64,000 bases of DNA from the NCBI GenBank assembly GCA_028693165.1, contig JAQUVX010000025.1:271-64270 (forward strand), in the 5' to 3' direction. The notes beneath the pieces were generated by a model. The model did not search any database and was not told the DNA's origin. It worked only from the letters and a program-made list of their open reading frames with translations. The number at the start of each line of letters is the position of its first letter. Position 1 is the first letter of the stretch. The DNA comes from Lachnospiraceae bacterium (GTDB lineage Bacteria > Bacillota > Clostridia > Lachnospirales > Lachnospiraceae). Of the stretch, positions 46,269-63,407 are shown in pieces. The translations under genes and the position numbers were made by a program.

Positions 46269-46296
46269 GTTTTTCACAAGGAAAGGAATGAGGAAA

Positions 46297-48098: not shown

Positions 48099-48115
48099 GA
48101 AAGAGGTATGTGTTT

Positions 48116-48595
48116 ATGAAAAAGACCATTCAGGAAAAAGGACTGCTTATCACCACGGATATGCTGGAACGTGCAAAGCTGGGAGATGAAATCCATCTGT
48201 CAGCAGCTGACGGCATGATTATGCTTACCAAGACAAAAATGACGGCAATGGATGTGGTAAAGCTCATTGATGTGCTGTCGGATATTGTGCAGGGCTGTCT
48301 GTCTACACTGATGGACAACTGCGGTGAGTGTGAGGAATGCGACCACTGCAAGGATTTGGGCTTCGAGGGCATCCATCTGCCTGCGGAGGTACTTAAAATT
48401 GCCGGTATTCCGGAGAACACAAAGCTGAATGCTTTTGTGGAGGAAGATGGCGGAGTCATTCACATTGAGCCTGCCGAGTATGATTACGACATTGCCGATG
48501 TGCCGCCACATTTGTTACAGCTGTTTATGGATTACGGTATCTGCTTTGGGGAGCTTGATGCACTTTTGGTCAGGGGGGATTTGCTGCATGGATAA
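48116..48595 (+). CDS. Protein with two AbrB/SpoVT-like segments separated by a CxxCxxCxxC cluster
   Basis: LLITTDMLERAKLGDEIHLSAADGMIMLTK and IHLPAEVLKIAGIPENTKLNAFVEEDGGVIHIEP resemble SpoVT/AbrB swapped-hairpin units. CGECEECDHC lies between them. Confidence 0.5.
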   Translation: MKKTIQEKGLLITTDMLERAKLGDEIHLSAADGMIMLTKTKMTAMDVVKLIDVLSDIVQGCLSTLMDNCGECEECDHCKDLGFEGIHLPAEVLKIAGIPENTKLNAFVEEDGGVIHIEPAEYDYDIADVPPHLLQLFMDYGICFGELDALLVRGDLLHG

Positions 48596-49325
48596 AAAAT
48601 ATGTTTACCCTTACAGCCTAAAGGAAGCCAAGGAGCTTGGAGAGGTGGAACAGTATCGGGAATCCTTTCGGGAAAATATCCGCTGTGCCGAGACAATCAA
48701 AGCAATCATTAGCAAAAACTTTGATGGGATGCATTTAGGCGGGGATACGGCAAAGGCGGTCATTTCCGAATTTGGCTATGACCGAGTAAATTATGTGCTT
48801 GCCAACTCCTTGCAGGAGCTAAAAAGTGACGGCAGATTTTCTCCTGATAACAAGGAATGGGCAAAAAGTATTTACATTCCCGAGAACAAAAGTCATGGCA
48901 TCAATATGAATAACGATTTTGTGGTAACCTGCCACCCTGCAGTCCTTGACGGTTTTGTCAATCAGGCAAGAAAGGAATATCAGAGTCTTAATTTGTGGAA
49001 TCACACCCACTGCAATGATAAAACCAGCCTTGATTATACCGGCAAGGTCATGGTGCTTCGCCCCGATAATCTAAAGGACGAATACAAAACACCCAAGGAT
49101 CAGCTGATTTTGTGTGAGGGCGGCTTCGGCTGCAGTCCCACAGCCAGCGGCCGCAAGGTGTTTGGCAGATTTATTTCTGACGGTGAAAAATGCCAGTATG
49201 ACCGCAGTGACTTTATTGGGGAGCTAAAGGAAGAACATCTCCCCGATTGGGCAAGAGAACGCTTGCAGGAGATGGCGGAGCAAAAGCCGTCAGAGCCTGC
49301 GATGGGAGGGATGGAAATGCACTAA
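48588..49325 (+). CDS. DUF3849-like ICE protein
   Basis: The N-terminus YPYSLKEAKELGEVEQYRESFRENIRC resembles the DUF3849 pattern as I remember it. It overlaps the upstream stop codon. Confidence 0.5.
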   Translation: MDKKYVYPYSLKEAKELGEVEQYRESFRENIRCAETIKAIISKNFDGMHLGGDTAKAVISEFGYDRVNYVLANSLQELKSDGRFSPDNKEWAKSIYIPENKSHGINMNNDFVVTCHPAVLDGFVNQARKEYQSLNLWNHTHCNDKTSLDYTGKVMVLRPDNLKDEYKTPKDQLILCEGGFGCSPTASGRKVFGRFISDGEKCQYDRSDFIGELKEEHLPDWARERLQEMAEQKPSEPAMGGMEMH

Positions 49326-49335
49326 GGAGGATGCG

Positions 49336-49899
49336 ATGGAAGCCATAAAGCTTAAAAACAGCATTATTTATTATTACAAAAGCCCCTCGGGATACCTGCA
49401 AAACGGCAAAGCAACCCTTGATACCATGTTTGAATGTGATGAGCTGAAGGACTGGTGCAGAAAAAGCCGTTATGAAGCTGTTTTTACCGATGGTATCTTT
49501 GATAGGCTTGTTGGAAAGGAGAGTATATCGCAGTTTATGGAAAATGAAATATCCCTTAAAAATGTCCGAATTTGGCAGCTGAAAGCCGATTCGGACTTTT
49601 CTATGCGTTTCATTGCCTTGGAGGAATTTGAGCATCAGTTTGGACAGCCCAAGGCAGACAGCTACGAGGTCATTTATGACGGAAATCTTGGCACAAACGA
49701 TTTAGAGGAAATATACAATATTTGTAACATGAACCACCCAAAGGACTACAAAGGACATTCCCTGTCCATGTCCGATGTGGTGGAGCTGTATGACGAGGAC
49801 GGCAGCAGCTTCCACTATGTAGACCGCTTTGGCTTTCAGCAAATCGACTTCGAGCCATCAGAGCCGAAACAAGACTTTGATATGAAAATGCAGCAGTGA
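49336..49899 (+). CDS. YodL-like domain protein
   Basis: IWQLKADSDFSMRFIALEE...YEVIYDGNLG...LEEIYNICNMNHPKDYKGHSLSMSDVVEL fits the YodL-like domain. Confidence 0.7.
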   Translation: MEAIKLKNSIIYYYKSPSGYLQNGKATLDTMFECDELKDWCRKSRYEAVFTDGIFDRLVGKESISQFMENEISLKNVRIWQLKADSDFSMRFIALEEFEHQFGQPKADSYEVIYDGNLGTNDLEEIYNICNMNHPKDYKGHSLSMSDVVELYDEDGSSFHYVDRFGFQQIDFEPSEPKQDFDMKMQQ

Positions 49900-49969
49900 T
49901 TTTCTATCGTGTACATTTTATATGGTGTTGCGATAGTTAAGAAAATAATGAAAAAACAAGAGGTCAGAA

Positions 49970-50293
49970 ATGGAACAAAACAGTAACTTAAAGCTCGATG
50001 TGAGGGTAACTCCCATCGAAAATGGCGGCAATGTAAAGGCGTATGCTTCGGTAAATATCGGCAGTGCCTTTGCCGTGAAGAACCTGCGTGTCGTGGAGGG
50101 CAGTAAAGGTCTTTTTGTAGCAATGCCCAGCGTGAAAAACCACAAGGGCGAGTATGATGACATCTTCTTCCCCATCACCAAGGAAAGCCGTGCAGCCCTA
50201 AGTAGTGCGGTGCTTACCGCTTATGAGCAGAAGCTGGAAATGGCAGAAGCTCACACCCAGGAGCAAGTAAACGCTCCCGAAATGTCCATGTAA
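49970..50293 (+). CDS. SpoVG family nucleic-acid-binding protein
   Basis: LDVRVTPIENGGNVKAYASVNIGSAFAVKNLRVVEGSKGLFVAMPS is typical of SpoVG. Confidence 0.8.
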   Translation: MEQNSNLKLDVRVTPIENGGNVKAYASVNIGSAFAVKNLRVVEGSKGLFVAMPSVKNHKGEYDDIFFPITKESRAALSSAVLTAYEQKLEMAEAHTQEQVNAPEMSM

Positions 50294-50330: not shown

Positions 50331-50603
50331 ATGAAAACTATGAAAAATATGATCACCAAGGCTACTGATTTTGCAAACACAACCGCCATCAAGGCAGCAA
50401 CCTTTGCCAGTGTGCAGAAGCACAAAATGCGTCATGCAATCGCCAATAACAGCGGCGAAAATTATGTCGACTCTGCTGTCAAAATTCTTATCGCAGTTGT
50501 GCTGGGCGGTCTGCTCCTTGCCGGTCTTTACGCATTGTTCGGAGATGTAGTTATGCCTACCCTCAAATCCAAAATTCAGTCCATGTTCAACTACGCTGGT
50601 TAA
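50331..50603 (+). CDS. Candidate Flp/Tad-type prepilin (major pilin)
   Basis: 90-aa product with a long polar leader ending NNSG, then ENYVDSAVKILIAVVLGGLLLAGLYALF (a single hydrophobic helix). It lies immediately upstream of the prepilin peptidase gene. Confidence 0.6.
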   Translation: MKTMKNMITKATDFANTTAIKAATFASVQKHKMRHAIANNSGENYVDSAVKILIAVVLGGLLLAGLYALFGDVVMPTLKSKIQSMFNYAG

Positions 50604-51034
50604 TGGTAGGGATACAAGCGGCTGTATTTACAGCACTGCTGATTGCAGCCGCCATAAAGGATGGAAAAACAAGAGAAATACCGCCACAGCTTTGCATAGC
50701 TGTGGCACTGGTGTCACTGCTTGATTTCAGAGCAGGAAATCTCTTGGGGCTTGGCATTGCACTGATTGTCTATGTCTGCGGTGTGTGGATTTGCCCCGAG
50801 CAAATCGGCGGCGGAGATATTAAGTTGATCACTGCTGTTAGCATGGTGCTTGGCTTTACTGCCACAGCCTATGGATTGATTATCGCATTTACAGCGGAGC
50901 TGATATGGTTTCTTACACTCCGCAAAAAAGCAGCAAAGCAAGGGGCGGATCAAGAAGGTCTGCCCCTTGCACCATTTTTAGCAGTTGGTTTTTTAATCAC
51001 CTATTTTATGAAAATCGGAGGATATAGTTTATGA
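50603..51034 (+). CDS. A24-family prepilin peptidase (TadV/CpaA-like)
   Basis: Polytopic 143-aa protein with an IKDGKTREIP segment (first Asp) and GGGDIKL (second Asp motif). TAATG overlap with the pilin gene. Confidence 0.85.
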   Translation: MVGIQAAVFTALLIAAAIKDGKTREIPPQLCIAVALVSLLDFRAGNLLGLGIALIVYVCGVWICPEQIGGGDIKLITAVSMVLGFTATAYGLIIAFTAELIWFLTLRKKAAKQGADQEGLPLAPFLAVGFLITYFMKIGGYSL

Positions 51035-51150
51035 GAAACAAAAAGAACATTGTGATTCTGTGCGTGATGATACCTATTGTCACAGCACTTGCCTTTGTAC
51101 CGAAAATGCTGAAAGCACATCATAAAAGAACCTACACAGAATCATTTTAA
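51031..51150 (+). CDS. Unlisted 39-aa membrane peptide (MRNKKNIVILCVMIPIVTALAFVPKMLKAHHKRTYTESF)
   Basis: Translated by hand. ATGA overlap with the peptidase stop codon and a single TM segment. It is below the ORF-track length cut-off. Confidence 0.45.
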   Translation: MRNKKNIVILCVMIPIVTALAFVPKMLKAHHKRTYTESF

Positions 51151-51164
51151 GGAGGACGCAGAAC

Positions 51165-51992
51165 ATGAAATTTATGAAAAACAGAACAGCGGTTGGTGTG
51201 CTTTGCATCGTGGTATCCCTTGCCATCTGCTTTGGCATTACACCGCTTTTTAATCGGAGCATCAGTCAGAAAACCGAGATTGTCCGTGTGGCAAAGGACA
51301 TTAAGGTAGGCGATGAAATCACCAATGATATGGTGCAGACCGTGGAAGTGGGTGGATATAATCTGCCGGAAAATATCATCAAGACCACTGATACGGTTAT
51401 TGGCACCTATGCCACAGCAGACCTTGTGGTGGGTGACTATATTCTAAACACCAAGGTGTCCCAAACACCTGCATACGAAAATGCCTATCTCTATAATCTT
51501 GATGGCAGTAAGCAGGCAATTTCCCTTACCATCAAAACCTTTGCAGGCGGTCTTTCGGGCAAGCTGCAATCGGGTGATATCGTATCGGTGATTGCACCAA
51601 ATTACAAGGAACAGGGCTTAACGGTCATTCCGCCGGAGCTTAAATATGTTGAGGTCATTTCTGTGACAGCCTCCAGTGGTTATGATGCCAATACCGGCGA
51701 ACAGCTTTCAGAGGATGAGCGTGAGTTACCATCTACCGTAACGCTGTTGGTCACTGTGGAACAGGGCAATATCTTAGCCGAGCTTGAGTCCGAGGGCGAG
51801 AGTCATCTGTCCCTTGTGTTCCGTGGAGATAATGAAACAGCACAGCAGTTTATTGCTACGCAGGAGGAAGTTATCCAAAAAATCTATAATCCCCAGCTTG
51901 AAGAAGAAAGTGCCGATACTGCAACAGAACCTCAGCCCAATCAGTCTGAGGAATCCCATAATCCGCAGACAGGAGAAAGCGAGGGCGAGTAA
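51165..51992 (+). CDS. CpaB/RcpC-like pilus assembly protein (SAF domain)
   Basis: N-terminal TM segment, then a SAF-like VRVAKDIKVGDEITNDMVQTVEV. Position is the same as cpaB in Tad loci. Confidence 0.7.
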   Translation: MKFMKNRTAVGVLCIVVSLAICFGITPLFNRSISQKTEIVRVAKDIKVGDEITNDMVQTVEVGGYNLPENIIKTTDTVIGTYATADLVVGDYILNTKVSQTPAYENAYLYNLDGSKQAISLTIKTFAGGLSGKLQSGDIVSVIAPNYKEQGLTVIPPELKYVEVISVTASSGYDANTGEQLSEDERELPSTVTLLVTVEQGNILAELESEGESHLSLVFRGDNETAQQFIATQEEVIQKIYNPQLEEESADTATEPQPNQSEESHNPQTGESEGE

Positions 51993-52798
51993 TGAACTTT
52001 AAGAAAAACTCCATCTTCAGCAAAAGCGGTAAATCCGAACAGCCCAAGGAGCAGGTACTCCACGGCGGGGTTCTTGCGGTTTGGGGCAGTCCATCAAGCG
52101 GAAAGACCACTGTTGCAACGAAAATTGCCAAGCACCTTGCCGATAAAAAGAAAAATGTGGTACTGCTCCTTTGCGATATGACAGCACCCATGCTGCCTTG
52201 CATTTGCCCTCCCTCAGAGCTGGAATGCGAAAAATCCTTGGGAAGCATTCTTGCAGCACCCCATGTCAATGAAAGCTTGGTGAAGTACCACATGATTACC
52301 CATAAGAAGATGGAGCATCTCACCATCTTGGGTATGCTCAAGGGAGAAAATGAATACAGCTACACGCCCTTTGGCGAGGTACAGGCAAAGGAATTGATTT
52401 CGGCACTTCGCAAAATTGCACCCTTTATCATCATTGACTGCGGCAGCTATATTGCCAATGATGTGCTGTCGGCAGTGGCACTTATGGACAGTGATGCCAT
52501 TGTTCGCCTTGCCAATTGCGATCTAAAATCCATCAGCTACCTCTCAAGTCAGCTGTCCACTCTGCAAAGCGCAGGGCTTGATTTTGAAAAGCAGTATAAA
52601 TGTGCATCCAATGTCAAGCCCAATCACGGCATCGACCACATGAGTGGTGCAATGGGCAGTCTTAGCTTTAAGCTGCCTTATTCGTCCGAGGTGGAGCAGC
52701 AATACTTGGAGGGCAATCTCTTTAATGATTTAACCCTCAAGGACAGCCGAGAGTTCCGCCGTGAGATTGAAAAAATCGTAAGGGAGGTGTTTGGCTAA
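51992..52798 (+). CDS. ParA/MinD-type ATPase, TadZ/CpaE-like
   Basis: Deviant Walker A, AVWGSPSSGKTTVA. TAATG coupling on both sides. It sits directly upstream of the secretion ATPase gene. Confidence 0.7.
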   Translation: MNFKKNSIFSKSGKSEQPKEQVLHGGVLAVWGSPSSGKTTVATKIAKHLADKKKNVVLLLCDMTAPMLPCICPPSELECEKSLGSILAAPHVNESLVKYHMITHKKMEHLTILGMLKGENEYSYTPFGEVQAKELISALRKIAPFIIIDCGSYIANDVLSAVALMDSDAIVRLANCDLKSISYLSSQLSTLQSAGLDFEKQYKCASNVKPNHGIDHMSGAMGSLSFKLPYSSEVEQQYLEGNLFNDLTLKDSREFRREIEKIVREVFG

Positions 52799-54384
52799 TG
52801 GGTTTAGGCGAAAAGCGAGGAAACTCTATTTTTGAAAAGGAAAAGCCAGTGGCAGCTCATACAGCACCGAAAGTGACAGTGGAAATGAAAATTGATACCG
52901 TAGAAGTGGAAGCCGACACAGTGGAGGCAGTGCAGGAAATCGCTGAGGAAACCACCTTGAATGTGCGAGCCGATGAGCTGATGACAGCTGAAAAAGAGAA
53001 TGCAGTACCTGTGGAGCTGGGCATGAAGAAAAATGCCCACTCCTTATTTTTTGCCCCGGAAAGTGAGGGCAAGGACTTCTCCACAGTTCTAAAATCGGTG
53101 CAGGAATACATTTCGGAAAACTATGCCCAGCTTATCACCGACAGTACTCTTGAGGATGCCAAGGAGCAGATGAAGCGGTATATTTCTCAGTTTGTTATGG
53201 AAAAGCGAATTGCGGTCAAGGGCATGAACGGCAATGCATTGATTGAAGCCCTCTACACCGAAATGGCGGAATACGGCTTTTTGACAAAATATATCTTCGG
53301 CAAGGGCATTGAGGAAATCGACATCAACTCTTGGCAGGACATTGAGGTGCAGTATTCCGATGGTCGCACTGTCAAGCTGGATGAACGCTTTGACTCTCCC
53401 GAACACGCCATCAATGTGGTGCGAAGAATGCTTCATGTGTCGGGCATGGTGCTGGATAATGCAAGCCCTGTGGTGCTTGGGCATCTATCCAAAAACATTC
53501 GTATTGCCGCCATGAAAACACCCATTGTGGATGAGGATGTAGGCGTGTCCGCCTCCATTCGTATTGTCAATCCACAAAGCATGAAAAAAGAGGATTTTGT
53601 AAACACAGGTACGGCAACAGATAAAATGCTGGATTTTCTGTCGGCACTCATTCGCTATGGCATTTCCATCTGTGTTGCAGGAGCTACCTCAAGCGGTAAA
53701 ACAACTGTCCTTGGCTGGCTGCTAACTACTATTCCGGATAACAAGCGTATTTACACCATTGAAAACGGCTCTCGTGAGCTTGACCTCACACGCTTTCAAA
53801 ATGGTAAGGCAACCAATTCTGTCATTCATACTCTGACGAGGGATAGCGATATCCAAAGCCAGTGCATTGACCAAATCAAGCTGTTAGATATGGCACTGCG
53901 ATTTAATCCTGATATTGCCGTGGTCGGTGAGATGCGTGGAGAAGAAGCCAATGCAGCACAGGAGGCAGCCCGAACTGGTATTGCCGTTATGACTACCATC
54001 CATGCCAATTCCTGTGAAGCCACTTACCGCCGAATGGTATCTTTATGCAAGCGAGCCGTGGATATGAGTGATGAAACCTTGATGCAGTATGTCACCGAAG
54101 CCTATCCCATCATTGTGTTTTGCAAGCAGCTTGAAAATAAGCAGCGCCGCATGATGGAGATTATGGAGTGTGAAATCCTCCCCGATGGTACACGCAATTA
54201 CCGCACTATTTTCCAATATGTGATTACGGAAAACCGCATGGAGGATGGCAGATTTATTATCGACGGACACCATGAACAGAGGAACACCATCTCCGACAGT
54301 CTGTCCAAGCGACTATTGGAAAATGGTATGTCCCTTGCCCAGATTAACAGCCTAAAAGAGAAAGATGAGGTGAAATCAGCTTGA
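52798..54384 (+). CDS. CpaF/TadA-type secretion ATPase (T2SS/T4P/T4SS ATPase superfamily)
   Basis: Walker A GATSSGKTT, Walker B-like DIAVVGEMRG, His-box TTIHANS. Confidence 0.88.
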   Translation: MGLGEKRGNSIFEKEKPVAAHTAPKVTVEMKIDTVEVEADTVEAVQEIAEETTLNVRADELMTAEKENAVPVELGMKKNAHSLFFAPESEGKDFSTVLKSVQEYISENYAQLITDSTLEDAKEQMKRYISQFVMEKRIAVKGMNGNALIEALYTEMAEYGFLTKYIFGKGIEEIDINSWQDIEVQYSDGRTVKLDERFDSPEHAINVVRRMLHVSGMVLDNASPVVLGHLSKNIRIAAMKTPIVDEDVGVSASIRIVNPQSMKKEDFVNTGTATDKMLDFLSALIRYGISICVAGATSSGKTTVLGWLLTTIPDNKRIYTIENGSRELDLTRFQNGKATNSVIHTLTRDSDIQSQCIDQIKLLDMALRFNPDIAVVGEMRGEEANAAQEAARTGIAVMTTIHANSCEATYRRMVSLCKRAVDMSDETLMQYVTEAYPIIVFCKQLENKQRRMMEIMECEILPDGTRNYRTIFQYVITENRMEDGRFIIDGHHEQRNTISDSLSKRLLENGMSLAQINSLKEKDEVKSA

Positions 54385-55310
54385 ATTTAATCCTACTCAT
54401 TGCCTGTATCGGAATGATAACAGGTTTTTTTGTTTTGTTTTCCCTATCGCCTGCGGAGTTTACAGACGGCATTTTTACAAGACTGCTGTCAAACTCCAAG
54501 AGCATTAAGAGCGAAATCAAGGAAAGCACCAACCGCAAAAAGACAGGCTTCTTCAAAAGAGAAATCAAGGAGGTGCAGGAAATCCTTGCCGTCACAGGCA
54601 GAAGTAAGCGTTTCCCCGTGCTCTGTCTGCTGTCCTTGGCACTGTTTGCGGTGGGGGCGTCTATTGCCATTATGCTCGGAAACTTCTTCGCTGTACCGGT
54701 GCTTGCTGTGGGATTTATGCTTCTTCCATTTTGGTATGTACGCCTAACCCAAAGCCATTTCAAGAAGGATATTGCCGCAGAGCTTGAAACAGCACTTTCC
54801 ATCATTACCACCGCCTACCTTAGAAATGAGGATATTGTAACAGCTGTGGAGGAAAATATCGGCTACCTAAACCCACCTGTACTGGCGGTATTTAAGGCAT
54901 TTACCTACCGAATTAAGATGATTGACCCTGATATTACAGCTGCCATTACTGCCATGCGTGAGCAGATTGACAATGGCGTGTTTCACGAATGGTGCGATGC
55001 CATGCTTGCCTGCCAGCATGACCGAAGCCTAAAAAGCACACTGACACCCATTGTAACAAAGCTCAGTGATATGCGAGTGGTAAACGGCGAACTGGAGAAC
55101 ATGGTTTTTGAACCAAGAAAAGAGTTTATCTCCATGCAGGTGCTGATGCTTGCCAACATTCCGCTGTTGTACTTTCTCAACAAGGATTGGTATGCAACAC
55201 TGATGCACAGCGTACCGGGGCAACTGGTGTTGGCAGCGTGCTTTGTCATTATGTTCGTATCTATGGCATTTGTCATTAATCTGACACAGCCCATCGAATA
55301 CAGGAGGTGA
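54381..55310 (+). CDS. TadB-like type II secretion system F-family membrane protein
   Basis: 309-aa protein with the N-terminal TM, cytoplasmic domain and C-terminal TM pair layout. It overlaps the ATPase stop. Apparent TTG start. Confidence 0.7.
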   Translation: MNLILLIACIGMITGFFVLFSLSPAEFTDGIFTRLLSNSKSIKSEIKESTNRKKTGFFKREIKEVQEILAVTGRSKRFPVLCLLSLALFAVGASIAIMLGNFFAVPVLAVGFMLLPFWYVRLTQSHFKKDIAAELETALSIITTAYLRNEDIVTAVEENIGYLNPPVLAVFKAFTYRIKMIDPDITAAITAMREQIDNGVFHEWCDAMLACQHDRSLKSTLTPIVTKLSDMRVVNGELENMVFEPRKEFISMQVLMLANIPLLYFLNKDWYATLMHSVPGQLVLAACFVIMFVSMAFVINLTQPIEYRR

Positions 55311-55318
55311 GAAATACG

Positions 55319-56191
55319 ATGGAATTTTTAATGATACTTTTTGGCACATTCTTCGGCTTGGGATTATTTTTCATTCTTGCCGATGTGCTGAAGCTCCCAA
55401 GCCTTGCCACGGGTAAGGCCATGCTCACCGCCACCAAGCGAAGCGGTGAAAGGGCAAAAAGCCTTGAATCACTCTTAAACGGCTGGGCGGTCAAGCTTGC
55501 CAAATACCTGCCGATGGATGAATACAAGAAAATCCGAATGCAGCACACCCTAAGTGCTGCAGGCATGGCAGAAACGCCGGAGGAATTTACAGCATATGCA
55601 CTGCTAAAATCGGCTTTGATTGCGTCACTGATCTTGCCGTGTCTGCTAATTTTTCCGTTGATTGCTCCAATCGTACTGTTCCTGTCGGTCATTGTGTATT
55701 TCAAAGAAATCCGCAAGGCAGATGAAAAGCTGACCGCAAAGCGTGAAAAGATTGAAATAGAACTGCCACGCTTTGTTGCCACCATCACCCAGGAGCTAAA
55801 GGCAAGCCGAGATGTCCTTTCAATGCTGGAGCATTACAAGAAAAATTCAGGCGAAGATTTTGCAAAGGAGCTGGACATTGTAACTGCCGATATGCGCTCA
55901 TCAAGCTATGAGGCGGCTCTCACCCGATTTGAGTCAAGGCTCAATTCCCCCATGCTTTCGGATATTACCAGAGGGCTTATTGGCGTGCTTCGTGGCGATG
56001 ACGGCGGTATGTATTTTCAAATGCTTAGTCACGACATGAAGCAGCTGGAGCTGCAGAGATTAAAGGCACAGGCAATGAAGATACCGCCTAAAATCCGAGT
56101 GTTCAGCTTTTTAATGCTAATGTGCTTTCTCATGATGTACATGGTGGTTATTGTCTTTGAAATTATCCGATCCCTTGGCGGAATGCTGTAG
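55319..56191 (+). CDS. TadC-like type II secretion system F-family membrane protein
   Basis: Same architecture as the preceding gene. The ATG at 55319 follows AGGAGG. Confidence 0.7.
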   Translation: MEFLMILFGTFFGLGLFFILADVLKLPSLATGKAMLTATKRSGERAKSLESLLNGWAVKLAKYLPMDEYKKIRMQHTLSAAGMAETPEEFTAYALLKSALIASLILPCLLIFPLIAPIVLFLSVIVYFKEIRKADEKLTAKREKIEIELPRFVATITQELKASRDVLSMLEHYKKNSGEDFAKELDIVTADMRSSSYEAALTRFESRLNSPMLSDITRGLIGVLRGDDGGMYFQMLSHDMKQLELQRLKAQAMKIPPKIRVFSFLMLMCFLMMYMVVIVFEIIRSLGGML

Positions 56192-56201
56192 GAGGTGCAT
56201 A

Positions 56202-56606
56202 ATGGAGAAATTGTTGAAGCCTCTTAAAAACAATCGTGGCGAGGGCTACATCGATGTGGTGGTGCTGATTTTGTGTGCCATGCTTGTGATTGCCCTTGCG
56301 GTCAAGGTGTTCCCCGCCTATATCGCCAAGCAAAGGGTGGACACCTTCGCCACAGAGCTTGTGCGTGAAGCGGAAATTGCAGGACAGGTCGGCTCGGAAA
56401 CCTCAAGACGGCAGCAGCTTCTTGTGGAACAGACAGGAATCAGTCCCGAGGTCAGCTGGTCACGAACAGGCAAAATTCAGCTGAATGAGGAAGTTTCTGT
56501 GGTGGTCATATACCGTATGGAGATTGGCTTGTTCGGAGAATTTGGCTCATTCCCTGTCACCTTGCGAGGGGAAGCAATGGGAAAAAGCGAGGTGTACTGG
56601 AAATGA
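56202..56606 (+). CDS. Pseudopilin-like protein (DUF4320-like) with a class III type signal
   Basis: N-terminus MEKLLKPLKNNRG-EGYIDVVVLILCAMLVIALAV. Confidence 0.6.
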   Translation: MEKLLKPLKNNRGEGYIDVVVLILCAMLVIALAVKVFPAYIAKQRVDTFATELVREAEIAGQVGSETSRRQQLLVEQTGISPEVSWSRTGKIQLNEEVSVVVIYRMEIGLFGEFGSFPVTLRGEAMGKSEVYWK

Positions 56607-57154
56607 TGAAAAAGCTGTTACATCCCCTTAAAAATAATCGTGGCAATGGCTATCCCTTAGCTGTTGCCATTACTCTAATCCTTATTATGATTTTTACAGG
56701 TGTTTCCGAATATTTTCGACTGATGATTGTGGCACAGGGTGTCCGAGATGCCCTGCAGGACGCTGTTATTTCCACCGTTACGGAGAATTACAGCAATGTA
56801 TATCACGGTGTCCGTGAGGGATATTCGGGTGGATATCAGCCTATGGCGGAGGACTTCGAGGAAGCCTTGGACTATGGTGATATCTATGATAAAATGGATA
56901 CCATACTTGGGCTTACCGTGCAAAACGGTTATCATATCAAGCCTGCAAGTGATACCACCCAAACCCAATTTAAGATATGGGGCTTAGCGGTGGAAATAGA
57001 AAATGCACCTCTTGCCGCAGCTGATTATTCAGGCGATAGGTTTACCATTGACAGCACCATTATGTTGGAAGTTCCCGTATCCTTTGGCGGGAAATTGCTG
57101 CCACCCATGCGAATAAAGGTGAAAAACAGTGCCGGTTACACGCCGAAATTTTAA
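56603..57154 (+). CDS. Pseudopilin-like (TadE/TadF-type) protein
   Basis: N-terminus MMKKLLHPLKNNRG-NGYPLAVAITLILIMIF. ATGA overlap with the upstream gene. Confidence 0.6.
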   Translation: MMKKLLHPLKNNRGNGYPLAVAITLILIMIFTGVSEYFRLMIVAQGVRDALQDAVISTVTENYSNVYHGVREGYSGGYQPMAEDFEEALDYGDIYDKMDTILGLTVQNGYHIKPASDTTQTQFKIWGLAVEIENAPLAAADYSGDRFTIDSTIMLEVPVSFGGKLLPPMRIKVKNSAGYTPKF

Positions 57155-57243
57155 CTTTCCCTTAACTTCACAATCTTTTAATAGCTATTACTTACTTTCT
57201 GTGGTAATGTGTGGCTTAACAAAAATATAAGGAGGAAACCCCT

Positions 57244-57780
57244 ATGAAGAATATGAATGATAAAACAAAGAAATGGCTTGTGGTTGCAGGCGGTCTTGCT
57301 GTAAGTGCGGTGCTGCTGGTGCTGATTGCAGGAGCCTTCAAAACTCCGGCAGTCGAGGATGCAGACATCCCCCAAAGCAGCAGTGAGGTGCAGGACATTG
57401 TAGTGGATGCACCTGATATTACAGAGAAAGAAAATGACATCACTGTCCCTGCAATCGACATCCCAGAGGAAGTAAAATCCTCAAACGGTGTGGACACCGG
57501 CACCGAGCAGACCATTCAGCCGGATGTGGAAGAAAAGCCTACCTACACCGAGGAAGAACTGACAAACCCCAATCAGAAGCCAAACGGTGAAAAGGTAGAC
57601 CCTCCGACAGAGGAAAATCCGACTCCGCCGCAGACACAGGATAACCCGCAGGAACAGCCAAGTGCTTCTACCGGCGGTGGGCTGCCGGGCTTCGATAATG
57701 TACCAAATGCAGGAGAAAGCGAAAACATTTATGTAGACGGTATGAAAGAAAATGGAAACAAAATTGGAATTATGGACTAA
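57244..57780 (+). CDS. Single-pass membrane protein with a Pro/Glu/Thr-rich extracellular region
   Basis: TM segment WLVVAGGLAVSAVLLVLIAGAF followed by a low-complexity acidic/Pro-rich sequence. Confidence 0.55.
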   Translation: MKNMNDKTKKWLVVAGGLAVSAVLLVLIAGAFKTPAVEDADIPQSSSEVQDIVVDAPDITEKENDITVPAIDIPEEVKSSNGVDTGTEQTIQPDVEEKPTYTEEELTNPNQKPNGEKVDPPTEENPTPPQTQDNPQEQPSASTGGGLPGFDNVPNAGESENIYVDGMKENGNKIGIMD

Positions 57781-57797
57781 ATCAAGAATAGCAAAAG

Positions 57798-57826
57798 AAA
57801 TGCACTGTGAAAACGGTGCATTTTTC
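57798..57826 (+). terminator. Intrinsic terminator closing the pilus operon
   Basis: TGCAC..GTGCA hairpin followed by TTTTT. Confidence 0.65.
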
Positions 57827-57845
57827 TTTGCAGAAAGGAACCCTA

Positions 57846-59573
57846 ATGAGAAAAATTCTATCAGCATTCTGCTTGGTTTTTGCCCTTGTTTGCTGTTTTT
57901 CTGTTCCTGCATTTGCTGTAGGCGATGGAAATATTGATGCAGGAGGCGGTGGCATGGGCAGTGGCACAAGCACCAATGTATGGTCACCGGGTAATGATGG
58001 AGTGAGAGTAACTGTGGTTAAAGCAGATACCCACTCACCAGTGACAACTCCAATCGACTTAACAAATAAATCTCCAAGCAATGGTATTTATAATTTTGGA
58101 AAAAAATCAAAATTAAGTTATAGCAGTGGTCAGTCGCTAACTCCGCAAAAAGGTGGATTTAAAACATACACACCACAGCAGCAACTGCCTCGAATTGTCA
58201 GCACTAATGGAAGTAATAACATTTCTGCGATAAAAAGCTACTTTACAGATGAGCTAATTATTCGATATATCGCCCAACTTACAGGCATGAACTACGATGT
58301 GTTAATCGGCGGTGATTACAAGTTACTTCTTGAGCCATTCGCTTTTTACAAGTTTGAGGGTGTCATGATACTCACCACGGCAACCGAAGCCGCCATGTAC
58401 GATGAACAGGTCAGTGGCTTACTTCGCAGCAGAATGGTATCCCTCTCCCATAAGAATCTACCTCTTGCCATGTTCTTGGAGGTGTCAGATTTGGGATATC
58501 CTGCGTGGGGCGGCAGCACCACAAAGGCCGCCTCCAATGCGGAGATTAAATCTTCACTTGGTCTTGGTGTGGTACGGTTTACCGAGCAGCCGGAACAGCC
58601 TGTTGTTTCTGCCTATGACTACGAATATCGTGTGGATACCGAGGTTATTACCTCTGTTTGGGTAAGCGGTGGTCAGTCTGATCCCGATACCCCTACAACG
58701 GTCAGCTTTAATATTAATGGCAGCACCTACAACGTGGGGAATGTCTATTATCCCGAGGGCGACAGCCAGCTGGCGTGGGTAAAATGGACTACCCCTACCA
58801 CCGAGCAGGACATGGTCATTCATGTGACGGTGCGTGGCCCGGGCGGAACAGACAAGACCACCATCAACTGCAAAATCGTGGATTTGGATAAGAATCCTCC
58901 GCCAAATCCGGTTGCCGATGACCGAAACGATAGCTTCCGGCAGGAAGCCGTTCCCCAAAGAGCAGAAAAAGCAAGAGCAGACTGGAGCATCTGGCGTCCG
59001 TGGTGGCAGGAGTATTGGGTGGACAGAGGTCATTGGGAATCCGATGACTGGACGGACAGCGAGGGCAATTCCCACTCAAGTAGCTATTGGGTGTCAAATT
59101 GGGTTGACGAGGGATGGTATGAATTCGATTTAGACCGTTATTATGCTTCCTTCTCTGCCAATATGGACATCACCTGCGACAGCAAAAACCCAACTGCAAG
59201 TGGCTCAGTTATGAAAAGTGGGTACGGCATCAATGAAAAGGTGTCGGCATCTGTCAGCACCAATCAGTCCTCGGCAGTATCTAAACCGCAAAATGCGGTC
59301 AGCTATTTTCCGGAATTCAACTATAACACCTACTGGCGATTGCTTGACAGAATGGGCAGTGGGAGGTTTGAATTTAAGAAAAACAGCTATTCCACCTATA
59401 AGAACAGAACCCATTTCACCCCGATATGGATGCCGGACGGAGCATACACCGTCAACACATGGGTAATCGACAGCTGGACCCCCGTGGGTATGCTTTCTGC
59501 AAATCTGACCGACTCTCTGACCATCAGAGAATCGCTCTGGGCGGACTGGCACATCGGCCCGCTTGCCCCTTGA
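57846..59573 (+). CDS. Large secreted protein with a Trp-rich C-terminal region (function unknown)
   Basis: Signal peptide MRKILSAFCLVFALVCCFSVPAFA. There are ten Trp in about 55 residues around 58975..59125 (ADWSIWRPWWQEYWVDRGHWESDDW...). Confidence 0.6.
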   Translation: MRKILSAFCLVFALVCCFSVPAFAVGDGNIDAGGGGMGSGTSTNVWSPGNDGVRVTVVKADTHSPVTTPIDLTNKSPSNGIYNFGKKSKLSYSSGQSLTPQKGGFKTYTPQQQLPRIVSTNGSNNISAIKSYFTDELIIRYIAQLTGMNYDVLIGGDYKLLLEPFAFYKFEGVMILTTATEAAMYDEQVSGLLRSRMVSLSHKNLPLAMFLEVSDLGYPAWGGSTTKAASNAEIKSSLGLGVVRFTEQPEQPVVSAYDYEYRVDTEVITSVWVSGGQSDPDTPTTVSFNINGSTYNVGNVYYPEGDSQLAWVKWTTPTTEQDMVIHVTVRGPGGTDKTTINCKIVDLDKNPPPNPVADDRNDSFRQEAVPQRAEKARADWSIWRPWWQEYWVDRGHWESDDWTDSEGNSHSSSYWVSNWVDEGWYEFDLDRYYASFSANMDITCDSKNPTASGSVMKSGYGINEKVSASVSTNQSSAVSKPQNAVSYFPEFNYNTYWRLLDRMGSGRFEFKKNSYSTYKNRTHFTPIWMPDGAYTVNTWVIDSWTPVGMLSANLTDSLTIRESLWADWHIGPLAP

Positions 59574-59587
59574 AATTAGGAGGAAAA

Positions 59588-60064
59588 ATGGCTTATAAAC
59601 GAATAGCGGCTCCCAAAGCGGAGTTGTATCACTACACTAAAAAAGAAAGTCTGCCGAAGATTTTGGCAGATGACAGGATTCGAAAATTTAAGGATAAGGA
59701 ATGTTGGTTTTGTGCGTCCTTAGAGGATACCCTACAGCTGATGGAGCTTACCGTCATGCATGAGGGTGGTCTGTATATTGATACCAATGGCTTCCCAAAG
59801 CGTTATCCGAAATTTGTGCCGGATGATTATGTCATTCTAAAGCTCACACCAAGATATCAAAATGGTGATTGGGTCAGATGGCAGCAGGAAGTGCCGCCAA
59901 ACAGCTCACAGGAACTGCTTGACCAAGCCAAAAAATTCAGTGAACTGAAAATCGGGTATCGTGGAGATATGAAATTTCGGGAAAGTCCCGAAATCATAGA
60001 AATAAGCGAAGCCTTGCAGCTGAGAGCCGAAGAAGCTCCTACACTGCAAGGCTTTTGCTATTAA
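59588..60064 (+). CDS. Hypothetical cytoplasmic protein
   Basis: The ATG at 59588 follows AGGAGGAAAA. No family recognised. Confidence 0.5.
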   Translation: MAYKRIAAPKAELYHYTKKESLPKILADDRIRKFKDKECWFCASLEDTLQLMELTVMHEGGLYIDTNGFPKRYPKFVPDDYVILKLTPRYQNGDWVRWQQEVPPNSSQELLDQAKKFSELKIGYRGDMKFRESPEIIEISEALQLRAEEAPTLQGFCY

Positions 60065-60084
60065 AGGAAAGGTGAAAACATTTT

Positions 60085-60420
60085 ATGAAGAAAAAAAGAA
60101 AATTGATTTTGTGTCTTGTGGTGGCACTGCTTCTATGCTTGGCATTCAGCACTACAGCCTTTGCCGCAGGCGATGTTGCAGGAGCAATCGAAAGCACATG
60201 GAGCGATGCCTCGGGGCAGATTAAAACGGTGGTCAATCGGGTTGTGTTTCCAGCCATTGACCTAATCTTGGCAGTGTTCTTCTTTGCGAAGCTCGGGCTT
60301 TCGTATTTTGACTACCGAAAAAGTGGGCAGTTTGAATGGGCGGCACCTGCGATTTTGTTCGCCTGCCTTGTGTTTACCTTGACTGCCCCGACATATATTT
60401 GGTCTGTGCTTGGAATGTAA
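60085..60420 (+). CDS. TrbC/VirB2-like conjugative T4SS membrane protein
   Basis: Signal peptide ending TTAFA-AGD, followed by two hydrophobic helices. Size and layout match VirB2-like proteins of Firmicute ICEs. Confidence 0.6.
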   Translation: MKKKRKLILCLVVALLLCLAFSTTAFAAGDVAGAIESTWSDASGQIKTVVNRVVFPAIDLILAVFFFAKLGLSYFDYRKSGQFEWAAPAILFACLVFTLTAPTYIWSVLGM

Positions 60421-60458: not shown

Positions 60459-60863
60459 CTATAATCCGCTTGTAATCCGCTGTTTCAAATCCAAAATCTT
60501 TTTCTCAATTACTTGCATCGTCTGCTCAAATTCCGCATCACTTTTGCCGCTGGGGTCATCCAGGCCCCAATCTTCCCTGTGCTTGCAGGGCAGAAACGGA
60601 CATTGCACATTGCAGCCCATAGTCACCACAATGTCCACGGTCGGAATATCGGCAAGAAGCTTGGAACGCTGTGTCTGCTCCATGTCAATGCCATAGTGCT
60701 GCTTCATCAGTCGCACCGCATTTTGATTGATTTGCGGCTTTACCTCTGTGCCAGCAGAAAAACACTCAAACACATCGGCGGCAAGGAGCTTGCCTAACGC
60801 CTCGGCCATCTGGCTGCGGCAGGAATTGTGGACGCAAATAAAAGCTACCTTTGGCTTACTCAT
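60459..60863 (-). CDS. arsC: Arsenate reductase, thioredoxin-coupled LMW-PTP type
   Basis: CVHNSCRS (CX5R) P-loop and downstream Cys residues (GCNVQCPFLPC). The ATG overlaps the ACR3 stop (ATGA). Confidence 0.9.
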   Translation of the reverse strand: MSKPKVAFICVHNSCRSQMAEALGKLLAADVFECFSAGTEVKPQINQNAVRLMKQHYGIDMEQTQRSKLLADIPTVDIVVTMGCNVQCPFLPCKHREDWGLDDPSGKSDAEFEQTMQVIEKKILDLKQRITSGL

Positions 60864-61906
60864 GCTGGAAACCACCCCTTTGTTTTATTCGCAAATTTCA
60901 CCAGCATCAGCATGACAGGAACCTCCACCAGCACACCCACAATGGTAGCCAGTGCCACAGGACTGCCAGTGCCAAACAGGGCAATGGCAACCGCAACCGA
61001 AAGCTCAAAGAAGTTGGATGCGCCAATCATCCCCGCAGGGGCGGCAATGCTGTGTGGCAGCTTTAGTAGCTTTGAGGCGATGTAGGCTATGGCGAAAATC
61101 AATATTGTCTGCAAAATCAGCGGTACAGCAATGAGGACAATATGCAGCGGATTTTCTAAAATCACCTTGCCTTGGAACGAAAAGATAATGACCAGTGTGA
61201 GCAGCAGCCCCGCCACCGTAATATTGCTGAACTTGGGGATAAAGCTATTTTGAAAATAATCCGCGCCTTTTTTCTTCGTGACAAGGGTGCGGGTAAGTAC
61301 GCCGCCCGCCAGAGGGATCACTACAAACAGCACCACCGACAAAATCAGCGTATCCCACGGAATTTGTACGCCGCCAACACCCAACAGAAAGGCCACAATC
61401 GGCGTAAAGGCAATGAGGATAATCAAATCGTTGGTGGCAACCTGTACCACCGTGTAGGCGGCATCCCCCTTGGTGAGATGACTCCACACAAACACCATTG
61501 CGGTGCAGGGAGCCGCCCCCAGCAGCACCGCTCCAGCCAGATAATCGCGGGCAAGCTCTGGTGGAATCAGGGCCTTGAACACCACAAAGAAAAACAGCCA
61601 CGCAATACCAAACATGGTAAAGGGCTTAATCAGCCAGTTGGTCACCCAAGTCACAAATAGCCCCTTTGGGTTTTTGCCCACATTTTTAATGCTATGAAAA
61701 TCCACCTTGAGCATCATGGGATAAATCATCAGCCAGATTAAAATGGCAATGGGGATGGATACATTTGCGTATTCAAACCTACCGAGAAAGGCGGGGATGG
61801 CGGGAATAAATCTGCCAATCAGCACGCCCACCACCATGCACAGCGCCACCCAAACGGTCAGATACCGCTCAAAAAAGCCGATACCCTGCGCTTTCTCTTT
61901 GCTCAT
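60860..61906 (-). CDS. acr3: ACR3 family arsenite efflux transporter
   Basis: 348-aa polytopic protein. The N-terminus GFFERYLTVWV and overall pattern are typical of ACR3. Confidence 0.9.
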   Translation of the reverse strand: MSKEKAQGIGFFERYLTVWVALCMVVGVLIGRFIPAIPAFLGRFEYANVSIPIAILIWLMIYPMMLKVDFHSIKNVGKNPKGLFVTWVTNWLIKPFTMFGIAWLFFFVVFKALIPPELARDYLAGAVLLGAAPCTAMVFVWSHLTKGDAAYTVVQVATNDLIILIAFTPIVAFLLGVGGVQIPWDTLILSVVLFVVIPLAGGVLTRTLVTKKKGADYFQNSFIPKFSNITVAGLLLTLVIIFSFQGKVILENPLHIVLIAVPLILQTILIFAIAYIASKLLKLPHSIAAPAGMIGASNFFELSVAVAIALFGTGSPVALATIVGVLVEVPVMLMLVKFANKTKGWFPA

Positions 61907-61908
61907 GG

Positions 61909-62271
61909 CTACACCCCGGCTTTCTCAATCAGCTTTTTAGCCTCCTCAACCTTGATGAGCTTGCCGTAGCTGACAACCTTGCTGTCAATGACCAATGCCG
62001 GAGTTTGCATGACACCATACCCTGCAATCTGCGCGTCATCGCCAATGTTCAGCACCTCGTCGGCCAAGCCCAGCTCCGCCACCGCTTTTTTTACATTGGC
62101 AAAGGTGTCGGTGCTTTTCTGACAGCAGGCACCCAGCACGATAAAGCGAGCCTTTTCAACATCGCTGATGCCGCACTGCCCACCGCAGGCGCAGGTTGCC
62201 TTGATTTCCCCGCCGCCACCGCAGCAGGGGGTAGTGTCCTCTTTTTTCTTTCCAAAACCGAACAAAGCCAT
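61909..62271 (-). CDS. Thioredoxin-fold protein (redox-active disulfide protein 2 type) with a Cys-rich N-terminal extension
   Basis: The core FIVLGACCQKS...VMQTPALVID is preceded by PCCGGGGEIKATCACGGQCG. Confidence 0.7.
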   Translation of the reverse strand: MALFGFGKKKEDTTPCCGGGGEIKATCACGGQCGISDVEKARFIVLGACCQKSTDTFANVKKAVAELGLADEVLNIGDDAQIAGYGVMQTPALVIDSKVVSYGKLIKVEEAKKLIEKAGV

Positions 62272-62300
62272 AATATAGTCCTCCTCTAAATTGATTTTAT

Positions 62301-63314
62301 TTACACAATAAACGGCTGCAGGAAGTTAAAGAAGTATCCCACAAGGATGATACCGACAGCGCAGATGCCAATGAACAGAGCCAGCAGCTTCGGCTTAATT
62401 GCCTTTTTCAGCATAATCATGGACGGCAGGCTCAATGTGGTAACCGCCATCATAAAGGCGAGGATTGCACCGAGCTGTGCACCCTTGGCAAGCAGTGCCT
62501 CCGCAATGGGGATGGTGCCAAAAATGTCCGCGTACATGGGGATACCGATGAGGGTAGCCAGAATTACACCAAAGGGATTGTCAGAACCGAGCACCGAAGC
62601 CACCCATTCCTGCGGTATCCAGTTATGGATTGCAGCGCCGATCCCAACGCCTATGAGAATATACGGAATCACCTTTTTGAAGGTCTCAAAGGTCTGCTCC
62701 TTGGCATAGACCACCCTGTCACGGCGGGTCAAATCGGGAGCTTCAATATCCACACTGCCTGCGGTGAGAATAAAGCTCTCAACGTGCTTTTCCATGTGCA
62801 GCTTTTCGATGATGGTACCGCCCACCACAGCAATCAGCAGCCCCACCAGCACATAGATGACCGCCACCTTTGTGCCGAAAATACTCATCAGCAGCACCAG
62901 CGAGCCGAGGTCAACCATTGGGGAGGAAATCAGAAAGGAAAAGGTTACGCCCAGCGGCAGGCCGGATGAGGTAAAGCCGATGAACAGCGGAATGGACGAG
63001 CATGAGCAAAAGGGCGTTACCGTACCAAGCAGTGCCGCCATGATGTTTGCCCCGATGCCATGAAATCGTCCGAGAATTTTCTTAGACCGTTCAGGCGGAA
63101 AATAGCTCTGAATATAGCTGATTATAAAAATCAGGAAGCAGAGCAACACGGTAATTTTGATGACATCGTAAAAGAAAAACTGAATACTTGCTACCCATCG
63201 GTTGGAAAGGTCAAGTCCCATAGAGGAAAGTCCCCAGCCGAGGAGATCATTGAGCCACTTCATTCCGAGGATTTGCCCTTGAAAGAAGTCCCAAGCTGAC
63301 TGTAATATTTGCAT
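62301..63314 (-). CDS. DUF318/ArsP-like permease
   Basis: Polytopic 337-aa protein with a VTPFCSCSSIP motif, located within the ars operon. Confidence 0.7.
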   Translation of the reverse strand: MQILQSAWDFFQGQILGMKWLNDLLGWGLSSMGLDLSNRWVASIQFFFYDVIKITVLLCFLIFIISYIQSYFPPERSKKILGRFHGIGANIMAALLGTVTPFCSCSSIPLFIGFTSSGLPLGVTFSFLISSPMVDLGSLVLLMSIFGTKVAVIYVLVGLLIAVVGGTIIEKLHMEKHVESFILTAGSVDIEAPDLTRRDRVVYAKEQTFETFKKVIPYILIGVGIGAAIHNWIPQEWVASVLGSDNPFGVILATLIGIPMYADIFGTIPIAEALLAKGAQLGAILAFMMAVTTLSLPSMIMLKKAIKPKLLALFIGICAVGIILVGYFFNFLQPFIV

Positions 63315-63350
63315 AGAAAGGTACGCCTCGCTTTCTTAGTTAAAGTTTCG

Positions 63351-63370
63351 TATCAAGAAATTTTGATATA
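63351..63370 (-). promoter_or_regulatory. Second ArsR-type operator candidate, upstream of the permease gene
   Basis: TATCAAgaaattTTGATA inverted repeat with the same half-sites as the repeat at the arsR promoter. Confidence 0.45.
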
Positions 63371-63407
63371 TTGTGTCGAATAAAAGCCATCTCGAAACAG
63401 ATGGCTT

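Follow-up and report, generated by a model that had tools for sequence, protein, structure and literature searches.

A predicted Tad-like pilus operon in the transfer-region backbone of a Clostridial conjugative element family

We analysed a stretch of 64,000 nucleotides from a Lachnospiraceae bacterium (GenBank assembly GCA_028693165.1, contig JAQUVX010000025.1, positions 271 to 64,270 of the forward strand), referred to below as the window, whose right-hand part appears to belong to an element of the integrative and conjugative kind (ICE). Within this part, ten adjacent genes on the + strand (50331-57154) are predicted from their sequences to encode a complete monoderm Tad-like (type IVc-like) assembly machine. 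All ten had been listed in a preliminary description of the window and all were found at the same positions. Their order is pilin, A24 peptidase, CpaB, ParA-like protein, CpaF-like ATPase, platform proteins B and C, and minor pilins (Table 1). The overlapping junctions reported earlier were recovered in all six cases, by 1 nt at 50603, 51992 and 52798 and by 4 nt at 51031, 54381 (TTG start) and 56603; the remaining junctions are gaps of 8-14 nt. A purine-rich Shine-Dalgarno-like motif (GGAGG, GAGG or AGG) lies 5' of most starts. The starts taken earlier from the longest open reading frames (ORFs) had to be revised, 55319, 56202 and 57846 being likelier, and gene calls on identical contigs concur. 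A terminator scan found no strong or convincing + strand terminator between 46262 and 60420. Promoter scan matches were no more numerous than in shuffled sequence, and no promoter is claimed. A reading of the array as chance ORFs or as a decayed remnant was excluded because catalytic residues are invariant, the proteins are 69-90% conserved across orders and the translational coupling is intact.

Table 1. Features of the element in window coordinates, the operon and the genes that follow it first, with the matches or signals that identify them (arrow, predicted cleavage site).
Feature	Position	Strand	Evidence
Major prepilin candidate, 90 aa	50331..50603	+	Pfam DUF6133 E 8e-35
A24 aspartic prepilin peptidase, 143 aa, TadV/CpaA-like, without methyltransferase domain	50603..51034	+	Peptidase_A24 E 2e-11, 44.5 bits (cut-off 26.5)
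39-aa peptide with a single transmembrane segment	51031..51150	+	4-nt overlap and ribosome-binding site; no family match
CpaB/RcpC-like protein, SAF and RcpC domains, N-terminal transmembrane segment	51165..51992	+	Pfam RcpC E 1.7e-13, SAF E 3e-6
ParA/MinD-superfamily P-loop ATPase, 268 aa, in TadZ/CpaE position	51992..52798	+	AAA_31 26.9 bits (cut-off 27); weak MinD/ParA matches
CpaF/TadA-like hexameric motor ATPase, 528 aa, variable N-terminal ~115 aa	52798..54384	+	T2SSE E 3e-26; Walker A GATSSGKTT
Platform protein B, 309 aa, polytopic, TTG start	54381..55310	+	No Pfam match; AlphaFold2 model pLDDT 86
Platform protein C, 290 aa, TadC/TadB-like	55319..56191	+	Weak T2SSF, E 1.4e-3
Minor pilin 1 (candidate), 134 aa, leader MEKLLKPLKNNRG↓EGYID	56202..56606	+	Pfam DUF4320 E 2e-35
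Minor pilin 2 (candidate), 183 aa, leader MKKLLHPLKNNRG↓NGYPL	56603..57154	+	No Pfam match; class-III-like leader and hydrophobic helix
DUF6550 membrane-anchored Pro/Glu-rich protein	57244..57780	+	Pfam DUF6550 E 1e-11
575-aa Sec-signal secreted protein, DUF8193/8194/8195	57846..59573	+	Precomputed Pfam families
158-aa protein	59588..60064	+	No Pfam match; tblastn match in 21/80 loci
DUF3852, VirB2/TrbC-like small membrane protein, first type IV secretion system gene	60085..60420	+	DUF3852 E 3e-48
Arsenic-resistance cargo (ArsC-LMWP, Acr3, thioredoxin-like, ArsP, ArsR)	60459..63731	-	Pfam; between DUF3852 and TrbL
Upstream ICE backbone (YpsA, 2 ArdA-domain proteins, DUF4314, Bro-N/ANT, D12 methyltransferase, DUF3849, YodL, SpoVG)	42440..50293	+	Pfam
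Left junction of the element (approximate)	39821..40020	.	G+C step; housekeeping genes to the left; 3' end of rumA/TrmA-like gene

Assignments were made by Pfam and NCBIfam profile searches and hhalign profile comparisons, and structural matches by searches of solved structures, AlphaFold2 (AF2) models and Foldseek. Relatives were sought in one genome per species: at least 410 genomes encode a relative of the motor ATPase, and the loci of the 80 best relatives (69-88% identity) were fetched, 54 of them with adequate flanks. The top solved-structure matches of the ATPase are those of Caulobacter CpaF (8rkd and 9e24, E 3e-20, residues 115-486), followed in this order by archaeal GspE2, FlaI, VirB11, DotB, PilT and PilB. 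Its top NCBIfam match is the TadA-family model TIGR03819 (131 bits, below the cut-off of 373). By profile and by structure CpaF is closest to it, and ComGA, PilB and GspE are more distant, which upholds its earlier placement with CpaF/TadA rather than with competence systems or type II secretion systems (T2SS). Outside Clostridia, its best plasmid matches in a protein-mode search (~28% identity) are Ralstonia genes mostly annotated as CpaF; in the one Ralstonia record that was opened, the CpaF-matching gene lies within a canonical tad locus. The ATPase sequence was also found unchanged in human-gut metagenome contigs and in one Lachnospiraceae metagenome-assembled genome.

Against the VirB11 model TIGR02788, the ATPase scores 126.8 bits, below the cut-off of 249.95. 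Such near-equal scores for the VirB11 and TadA families (127 and 131 bits) would suit a different reading of the module, in which the ATPase is a 'VirB11' and the pilin-like proteins make up a short piston or pseudopilus for opening or spanning the wall, the whole being an integral part of DNA transfer built as a chimera of a type IV secretion system (T4SS) and a type IV pilus, as has been proposed for PAPI-1 (PMC12857230). We consider this improbable. The CpaF structures span the whole ATPase, whereas the solved VirB11 structures align only to residues ~216-418 (E 2e-11), which is just its C-terminal half. The plasmids described below bear on the same question.

That the operon encodes two TadB/C-like platform proteins holds in part. 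Platform protein C has a weak T2SSF match, which at 19 bits stays below the gathering cut-off of 25.2 and recurs, again weakly, in 6 of 11 family members, while platform protein B is recognisable just by its predicted fold. No Pfam or T2SSF match was obtained for B in 14 members, nor in a set of 35 (B and 34 diverse relatives); a profile search of the PDB returned nothing, and hhalign comparisons with Ralstonia TadB and TadC reached E 0.06-0.4 only. The cytoplasmic bundle of its AF2 model resembles SpoIIIAB, PilC-N, TcpE, OutF and EpsF, with target-normalised TM-scores of 0.62-0.74, a root mean square deviation of ~3 Å and Foldseek E-values of 0.4-6, none of them <=0.001. A diverse platform B profile aligned to the platform C profile by hhalign with E 8e-5 and a probability of 61%, which is not significant by itself. 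The two signals converge, and B may have a PilC/GspF-like fold and be a remote paralogue of C. Its family comprises 1032 clusters at 50% identity.

The major prepilin candidate carries a predicted cleavage site after G42 (NNSG↓ENYVD), which would release a 48-aa single-helix mature pilin, Flp-like in size. The motif is kept in 117 homologous ORFs of the fetched loci. The Flp profile does not match this protein, whose motif is G↓E-[G/N]-Y-[I/V]-D as against G↓xxxxEY in Flp. In some relatives two DUF6133 paralogues are present (L015, 2805-3089 and 7541-7792; L004, 2356-2885), with leaders of 28-54 residues as called; they could provide pilin variation or alternative major subunits. The A24 peptidase announced in the preliminary description scores above its cut-off, and its GGGDIK motif occupies residues 69-74; of 77 homologues, 75-76 keep the catalytic aspartates D20 and D72 (the latter in GGGDIK). 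Two further proteins had been called pseudopilin-like. Both have the same type of leader as the major pilin, but they belong to DUF4320 or to no family and not to TadE, TadE_N finding no match among the minor pilin candidates. The leader and hydrophobic helix of the second are kept in 79 homologous ORFs. All three pilin-like proteins have in common the motif [N/G/S][N/K]xG↓[E/D/N/S][G/N][Y/F][I/V/P][D/L], followed by ~20 hydrophobic residues.

Among the accessory proteins, the SAF/CpaB-like one is as described, with both Pfam domains present; RcpC lies above its Pfam cut-off and the CpaB model TIGR03177 gives 66.8 bits, under the cut-off of 71. The TadZ-like ATPase indeed has a ParA/MinD-like P-loop and the position that TadZ takes in the Ralstonia tad locus, yet it is generic: it lacks the receiver-like N-domain and falls just under the AAA_31 cut-off. 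The 39-aa peptide has tblastn matches in 9 of the 80 loci, in the closest relatives only.

The gene order is colinear with that of the Ralstonia tad locus (Flp, A24, TadE, RcpC, secretin, TadZ, CpaF, TadB, TadC), minus the secretin and outer-membrane parts. Like the canonical Tad systems (A. actinomycetemcomitans tad, Caulobacter cpa and, in monoderms, those of Bifidobacterium breve and Micrococcus luteus), the module combines an ATPase of CpaF type with two single-domain platform proteins, probably paralogous, a CpaB/RcpC-like and a ParA-like protein, a short peptidase of the A24 type, a small predicted pilin and two larger minor pilin candidates, all in a compact operon of like gene order. 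It lacks a secretin, as do the Tad systems of other monoderms (PMC6916266). In contrast, canonical pilins belong to Flp, with G↓xxxxEY, and to TadE_N, whereas those of the module belong to DUF6133 and DUF4320 and carry G↓E-G/N-Y-I/V-D; the TadZ receiver-like domain is missing; and the ATPase is only ~28% identical to Ralstonia plasmid CpaF. The canonical locus is a chromosomal colonisation island, whereas the module lies within a T4SS transfer region. The earlier label of a Tad/Flp-type module is therefore kept for the complete Tad-like machine and dropped in its strict sense: judged by sequence, membership in Tad/Flp fails, since the pilins are not of the Flp/TadE families and several components score below threshold.

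The operon had also been described as embedded in a Gram-positive conjugative element. The window itself contains no VirB4 or other T4SS ATPase, and neither a relaxase nor an integrase, so that the embedding had to come from the relatives, and there it was found, with TrbL_5, VirB4, an M23 peptidase and MobL downstream. In 53 of the 54 adequately flanked loci, all nine core genes, the upstream backbone markers and DUF3852 are present and syntenic; the upstream backbone is co-oriented with the module, and most relatives keep the synteny of its methyltransferase, YodL and SpoVG genes. The DUF8193 protein is found in 54 of the 54 loci, TrbL_5 in 25 (a few kb having been fetched downstream) and VirB4 in 5. 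A contig with an identical DUF3852 gene and ars operon runs via further cargo to DUF6809 and TrbL_5 (VirB6-like). On the contig of locus L013 and on two others, DUF6809 and TrbL_5 are followed in this order by genes for small proteins, for a VirB4-like ATPase of 606 aa and an M23 peptidase, for DUF3846 and DUF6103, and for a MobL relaxase and a primase (DUF3991/Toprim). DUF3852 thus leads to TrbL/VirB6 and VirB4 in the relatives, directly or after cargo. The gene that had been called VirB2-like belongs to DUF3852, and its TrbC match (E 2.5e-4) is only sub-threshold (21.6 bits against 27.9).

Hosts of the 80 best relatives are Lachnospiraceae, Oscillospiraceae, Anaerotignaceae, Peptostreptococcales, Tissierellia, Peptococcaceae and one Bacillaceae isolate. 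They come from gut, sediment and digester habitats and include the non-host-associated anaerobes Pelotomaculum, Sedimentibacter, Fusibacter and Mahella. Copies 99-100% identical in nucleotide sequence over 11-21 kb occur in different genera and orders, and several genomes hold two copies; these sequences indicate that the element family has spread horizontally in recent time and is actively transferring. Cargo is variable only at a hotspot between DUF3852 and DUF6809/TrbL_5. We strongly infer from these loci that the pilus module is a component of the transfer-region backbone and not cargo. In essentially every interpretable relative it lies in a mobile-element backbone and not mostly outside such elements.

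A nucleotide search of 50331-60420 against plasmids gave no match, while the protein-mode search did. Directly downstream of the module, pTPHSE1 (Terrisporobacter) and C. difficile pCd5_2 encode VirD4 (CD1115 family) and a pLS20_p028-family protein; pTPHSE1 additionally has genes for a VirB4-like protein, for a C40 peptidase and for a MobP2 relaxase. On an Oscillospiraceae plasmid it adjoins a DUF3852-TrbL-VirB4-M23-MobP3-T4CP region, in which the type IV coupling protein (T4CP) is downstream of the relaxase. The module thus travels with T4SS genes both in the ICE family and on plasmids, as the preliminary description had supposed. In the 80 ICE loci, VirD4 and p028 of pTPHSE1 had no matches and its VirB4-like protein had three faint ones (23-24% identity); the ICE thus uses a T4SS of another type than that of pTPHSE1, namely the one reached via TrbL_5. 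C. estertheticum pDSM8809 (25 kb) carries DUF3852-TrbL-VirB4 (50% identity)-hydrolase-DUF6103, with no pilus module and no annotated relaxase. Since this T4SS type occurs there without the module, the module is an add-on to it and not an obligatory part. To our knowledge, C. difficile CTn4, whose genes were not inspected and for which a published account names no pilus genes, transfers and appears to be without such a module, and the same seems true of pLS20.

An integral role in the DNA channel would find support in the position of the module on pTPHSE1, immediately before VirD4, and in the pAW63/pXO2 tra region, which encodes a 'VirB11' ATPase (PMC1196294). On pXO2 (NC_007323, 15738-20875 of the fetched sequence L097), a T2SSE 'VirB11' is followed by polytopic proteins of 277 and 249 aa and by a 120-aa weak DUF4320 protein (E 0.028), beside TrbC/VirB2. 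The pAW63/pXO2/pBT9727 region therefore resembles the module in its T2SSE ATPase, two membrane proteins of ~250-280 aa and a small DUF4320-like protein, with VirD4 and pLS20_p028 nearby, and the T4SSs of the pXO2 type and of pTPHSE1 are homologous (VirB4 35%, VirD4 42% identity). It differs in having no A24 peptidase, CpaB, ParA-like protein or class-III leader motif, and its ATPase is 23-27% identical. The similarity of the pXO2 neighbours to the module is weak, at E 0.0025-0.05 (platform C profile against the 277-aa protein by hhalign, E 0.0025), and does not establish homology. The Tad-like module may have a reduced relative in the pXO2/pAW63 'VirB11' region. These weak links, together with a plasmid that has the same T4SS type (VirB4 50% identical) and no module, speak against the integral channel, as would CTn4 and pLS20 if they lack such a module. 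The T4SS relatives that lack the module favour an accessory role.

Downstream of the operon, the large secreted protein of the preliminary description is indeed a 575-aa protein with a Sec-type signal. The DUF6550 gene before it co-travels with the module in 64 of the 80 loci and adjoins the module on the Oscillospiraceae plasmid too. Homologues of the 575-aa protein (39-43% identity) occur on pTPHSE1, pCd5_2 and the Oscillospiraceae plasmid, so that it is found with the module in all four backbones, in shifting positions; DUF8193/4/5 proteins of ~560-600 aa lie at L004 1-1761, L093 20117-21919 and L094 4661-6427. It has at least 3737 homologous clusters, and one UniRef homologue is named 'cadherin domain-containing'. 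The protein is a candidate adhesin or pilus partner. Its constant linkage to the module could also suggest that the machine is a T2SS-like exporter of the DUF8193 and DUF6550 proteins, or else a competence-like pilus for DNA uptake. Tad-like pili of Micrococcus luteus reportedly mediate transformation. We hold both variants to be very improbable: the 575-aa protein bears a Sec-type signal peptide of its own, a monoderm offers a T2SS no outer membrane to cross, and no ComEA, ComEC or DprA gene was found near the module in the Pfam-annotated neighbourhood.

The window covers just the left ~24 kb of the ICE, the T4SS lying beyond its end and the att site and right end of the element outside it. 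Up to 39.8 kb the window is chromosomal and comes from a sporulating Clostridial organism, with SpoIID, CotJ, serine dehydratase and 3 tRNA genes; an exact-sequence look-up for a 1044-aa protein of this part found no record. Rfam and tRNA scans found nothing within the element. The low G+C content attributed to the element was confirmed, G+C falling from ~52% before 40 kb to 44-47% after. The last chromosomal gene is a rumA/TrmA-like RNA uracil-5 methyltransferase gene (38279-40020 region), whose 3' end is probably the integration site. From there the element reads IS256-family transposase, XRE-like protein, YpsA, 2 ArdA-domain proteins, DUF4314, Bro/ANT, D12 methyltransferase, DUF3849, YodL, SpoVG and pilus operon. 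A 202-aa ORF without family match lies at 40021-40629, and the IS256/Mutator-family transposase (40797-42038, - strand, Pfam E 1e-115) is just inside the left end. An 83-aa ORF resembling an XRE-type regulator (42154-42405, - strand) is divergent from the long + strand array that starts at 42440 with YpsA and ArdA, and may be a master switch of the element. The ArdA-domain proteins, encoded within 43039-46206, are unusually large (559 and ~399 aa) and flank the DUF4314 gene. A strong terminator-like hairpin at 46223-46262 separates the ArdA genes from the Bro/ANT-methyltransferase-YodL-SpoVG-pilus array.

At the cargo hotspot, the window carries arsenic resistance genes; among the relatives, the hotspot was viewed at L086 (5759-15000), L011 and L046 (~18-21 kb) and L091 (1229-9011). 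On the identical contig the ars operon is followed by Crp, ArsP-like permeases, rubredoxin and Hcp. Other relatives have DUF5131/glyoxalase/AraC, or a larger ars/ArsA/ArsD set, at this place, and in some relatives TrbL_5 starts within a few hundred bases of the end of DUF3852, which leaves little or no room for cargo.

What the pilus would do for the element or its host has to be judged from gene context. One possibility is that it serves the host in adhesion, aggregation or biofilm formation and is carried for host fitness, so that transfer would be raised only indirectly, by cell packing. Among type IV filament systems, Tad is the one most often plasmid-borne and horizontally transferred, with many examples in Clostridia and Bacilli and adhesion as its usual role (PMC6668835), and both a secreted protein and a Pro-rich one anchored in the membrane accompany the module. 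On the Cutibacterium acnes linear plasmids p15.1.R1 and pIMPLE-HL096PA1, a tad locus lies beside FtsK-like, VirB4 and TcpC genes, its pilin was detected on the surface, and it has been read as a colonisation factor (PMC5696575). These plasmids are like the present module in that a Gram-positive tad locus adjoins conjugation-like genes; they differ in their actinobacterial host, canonical tad genes and narrow distribution, with no ICE family crossing orders. We regard the host-adhesion reading as unlikely. The module stands outside the variable cargo hotspot, between conserved backbone and T4SS genes, in 53 of 54 family members. Its proteins are conserved to much the same degree as TrbL of the T4SS (ATPase relatives 69-88%, TrbL_5 homologues 75-93% identity), and it recurs with three different conjugation backbones. 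Its hosts range over gut, sediment and digester habitats, and the presence of non-host-associated anaerobes among them argues against a specialised role in tissue adhesion.

A role in conjugation is favoured because of this backbone conservation, the contiguity and co-orientation with the T4SS, the occurrence with three conjugation backbones and the many habitats. By analogy with the IncI thin pilus, the module may thus be an accessory device for mating-pair formation that captures recipients or stabilises contact with them, a role to which we give even chances on the basis of gene context. The thin pilus of IncI R64/TP114 is encoded by the mobile element and plays an accessory part in liquid or gut mating, while the PAPI-1 pilus is essential for transfer; type IV pili that aid or are essential for conjugation are known solely from these Gram-negative systems (PMC12857230). 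The module resembles them in that a mobile element carries genes for a predicted type IV filament system of its own next to a T4SS. They differ in being type IVb pili of diderms with PilS/PilV pilins and shufflon adhesins, whereas the present system is Tad-like, belongs to a monoderm and has no identified equivalent of PilV or the shufflon.

As to assembly, the A24 peptidase would very probably cleave the three pilin-like proteins at their common leader motif. The CpaF-like ATPase and the two platform proteins, with CpaB and the ParA-like partner, would then polymerise the 48-aa DUF6133 pilin into a filament primed by the two larger minor pilins. If the module acts in mating-pair formation, donor cells would make this filament together with the T4SS (DUF3852/VirB2-like, TrbL/VirB6, VirB4, M23 hydrolase, MobL relaxase). 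The filament would pass the thick wall and capture recipients or stabilise the contact, the co-travelling 575-aa secreted protein being a possible adhesin, and a bifunctional CpaF-type motor may retract it. Such a device would be a Gram-positive functional analogue of the IncI thin pilus, accessory to mating-pair formation and not a DNA channel. In its boldest form, that members of a large and actively spreading family of Clostridial ICEs and plasmids seek out and hold recipients by means of a retractile Tad-like conjugative pilus of their own, and that the pAW63/pXO2 'VirB11' region is a reduced remnant of it, we advance the proposal tentatively and with somewhat less than even confidence.

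Several observations weigh against a role in conjugation. Canonical Tad pili serve in adhesion and biofilm formation. The pilins of the module are not of the Flp family, and the filament is a predicted one. The closest Gram-positive precedent, the tad locus of the C. acnes plasmids, has been interpreted as a colonisation factor (PMC5696575). For the ICE family, no T4CP, integrase or origin of transfer was seen in the reachable sequence (the window and 10-kb flanks). The survey was limited to the 80 best relatives and describes one element family plus four plasmids. Co-transcription of the module with the T4SS genes, which we infer, is based only on orientation, spacing and a weak terminator scan. 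As to the 575-aa protein, its AF2 model has a pLDDT of 50, no PDB match reached E <= 0.001, and just generic beta-sandwich resemblances were found.

The preliminary description held such a module to be uncharacterised in Clostridial ICEs, and our reading of the literature agrees. A full-text search, mostly excluding subscription journals, so that prior work is possible, found no published description of the module or of its role, and no paper in the searched literature used the DUF names of the module. One paper mentions Flp-assembly genes in passing, on a C. difficile contig suspected to be a plasmid (PMC5337907). The functional idea is plausible and new for Firmicutes.

According to a T4SS review of December 2025, conjugative pili are not encoded by Gram-positive systems (PMC12857230); a conjugative role of the present pilus, if true, would overturn this textbook view. 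The family occurs in at least 410 species-level genomes from gut and environment, crosses orders and carries cargo such as arsenic resistance. In Gram-positives, the first contact between donor and recipient is poorly understood beyond the adhesin systems of enterococci and lactococci. Should the operon promote mating, this would account for the family's broad host range and for its transfer in liquid or in the gut; the operon would also be a target for measures against the spread of genes among gut Clostridia, C. difficile plasmids included, and a simple monoderm model for Tad assembly.

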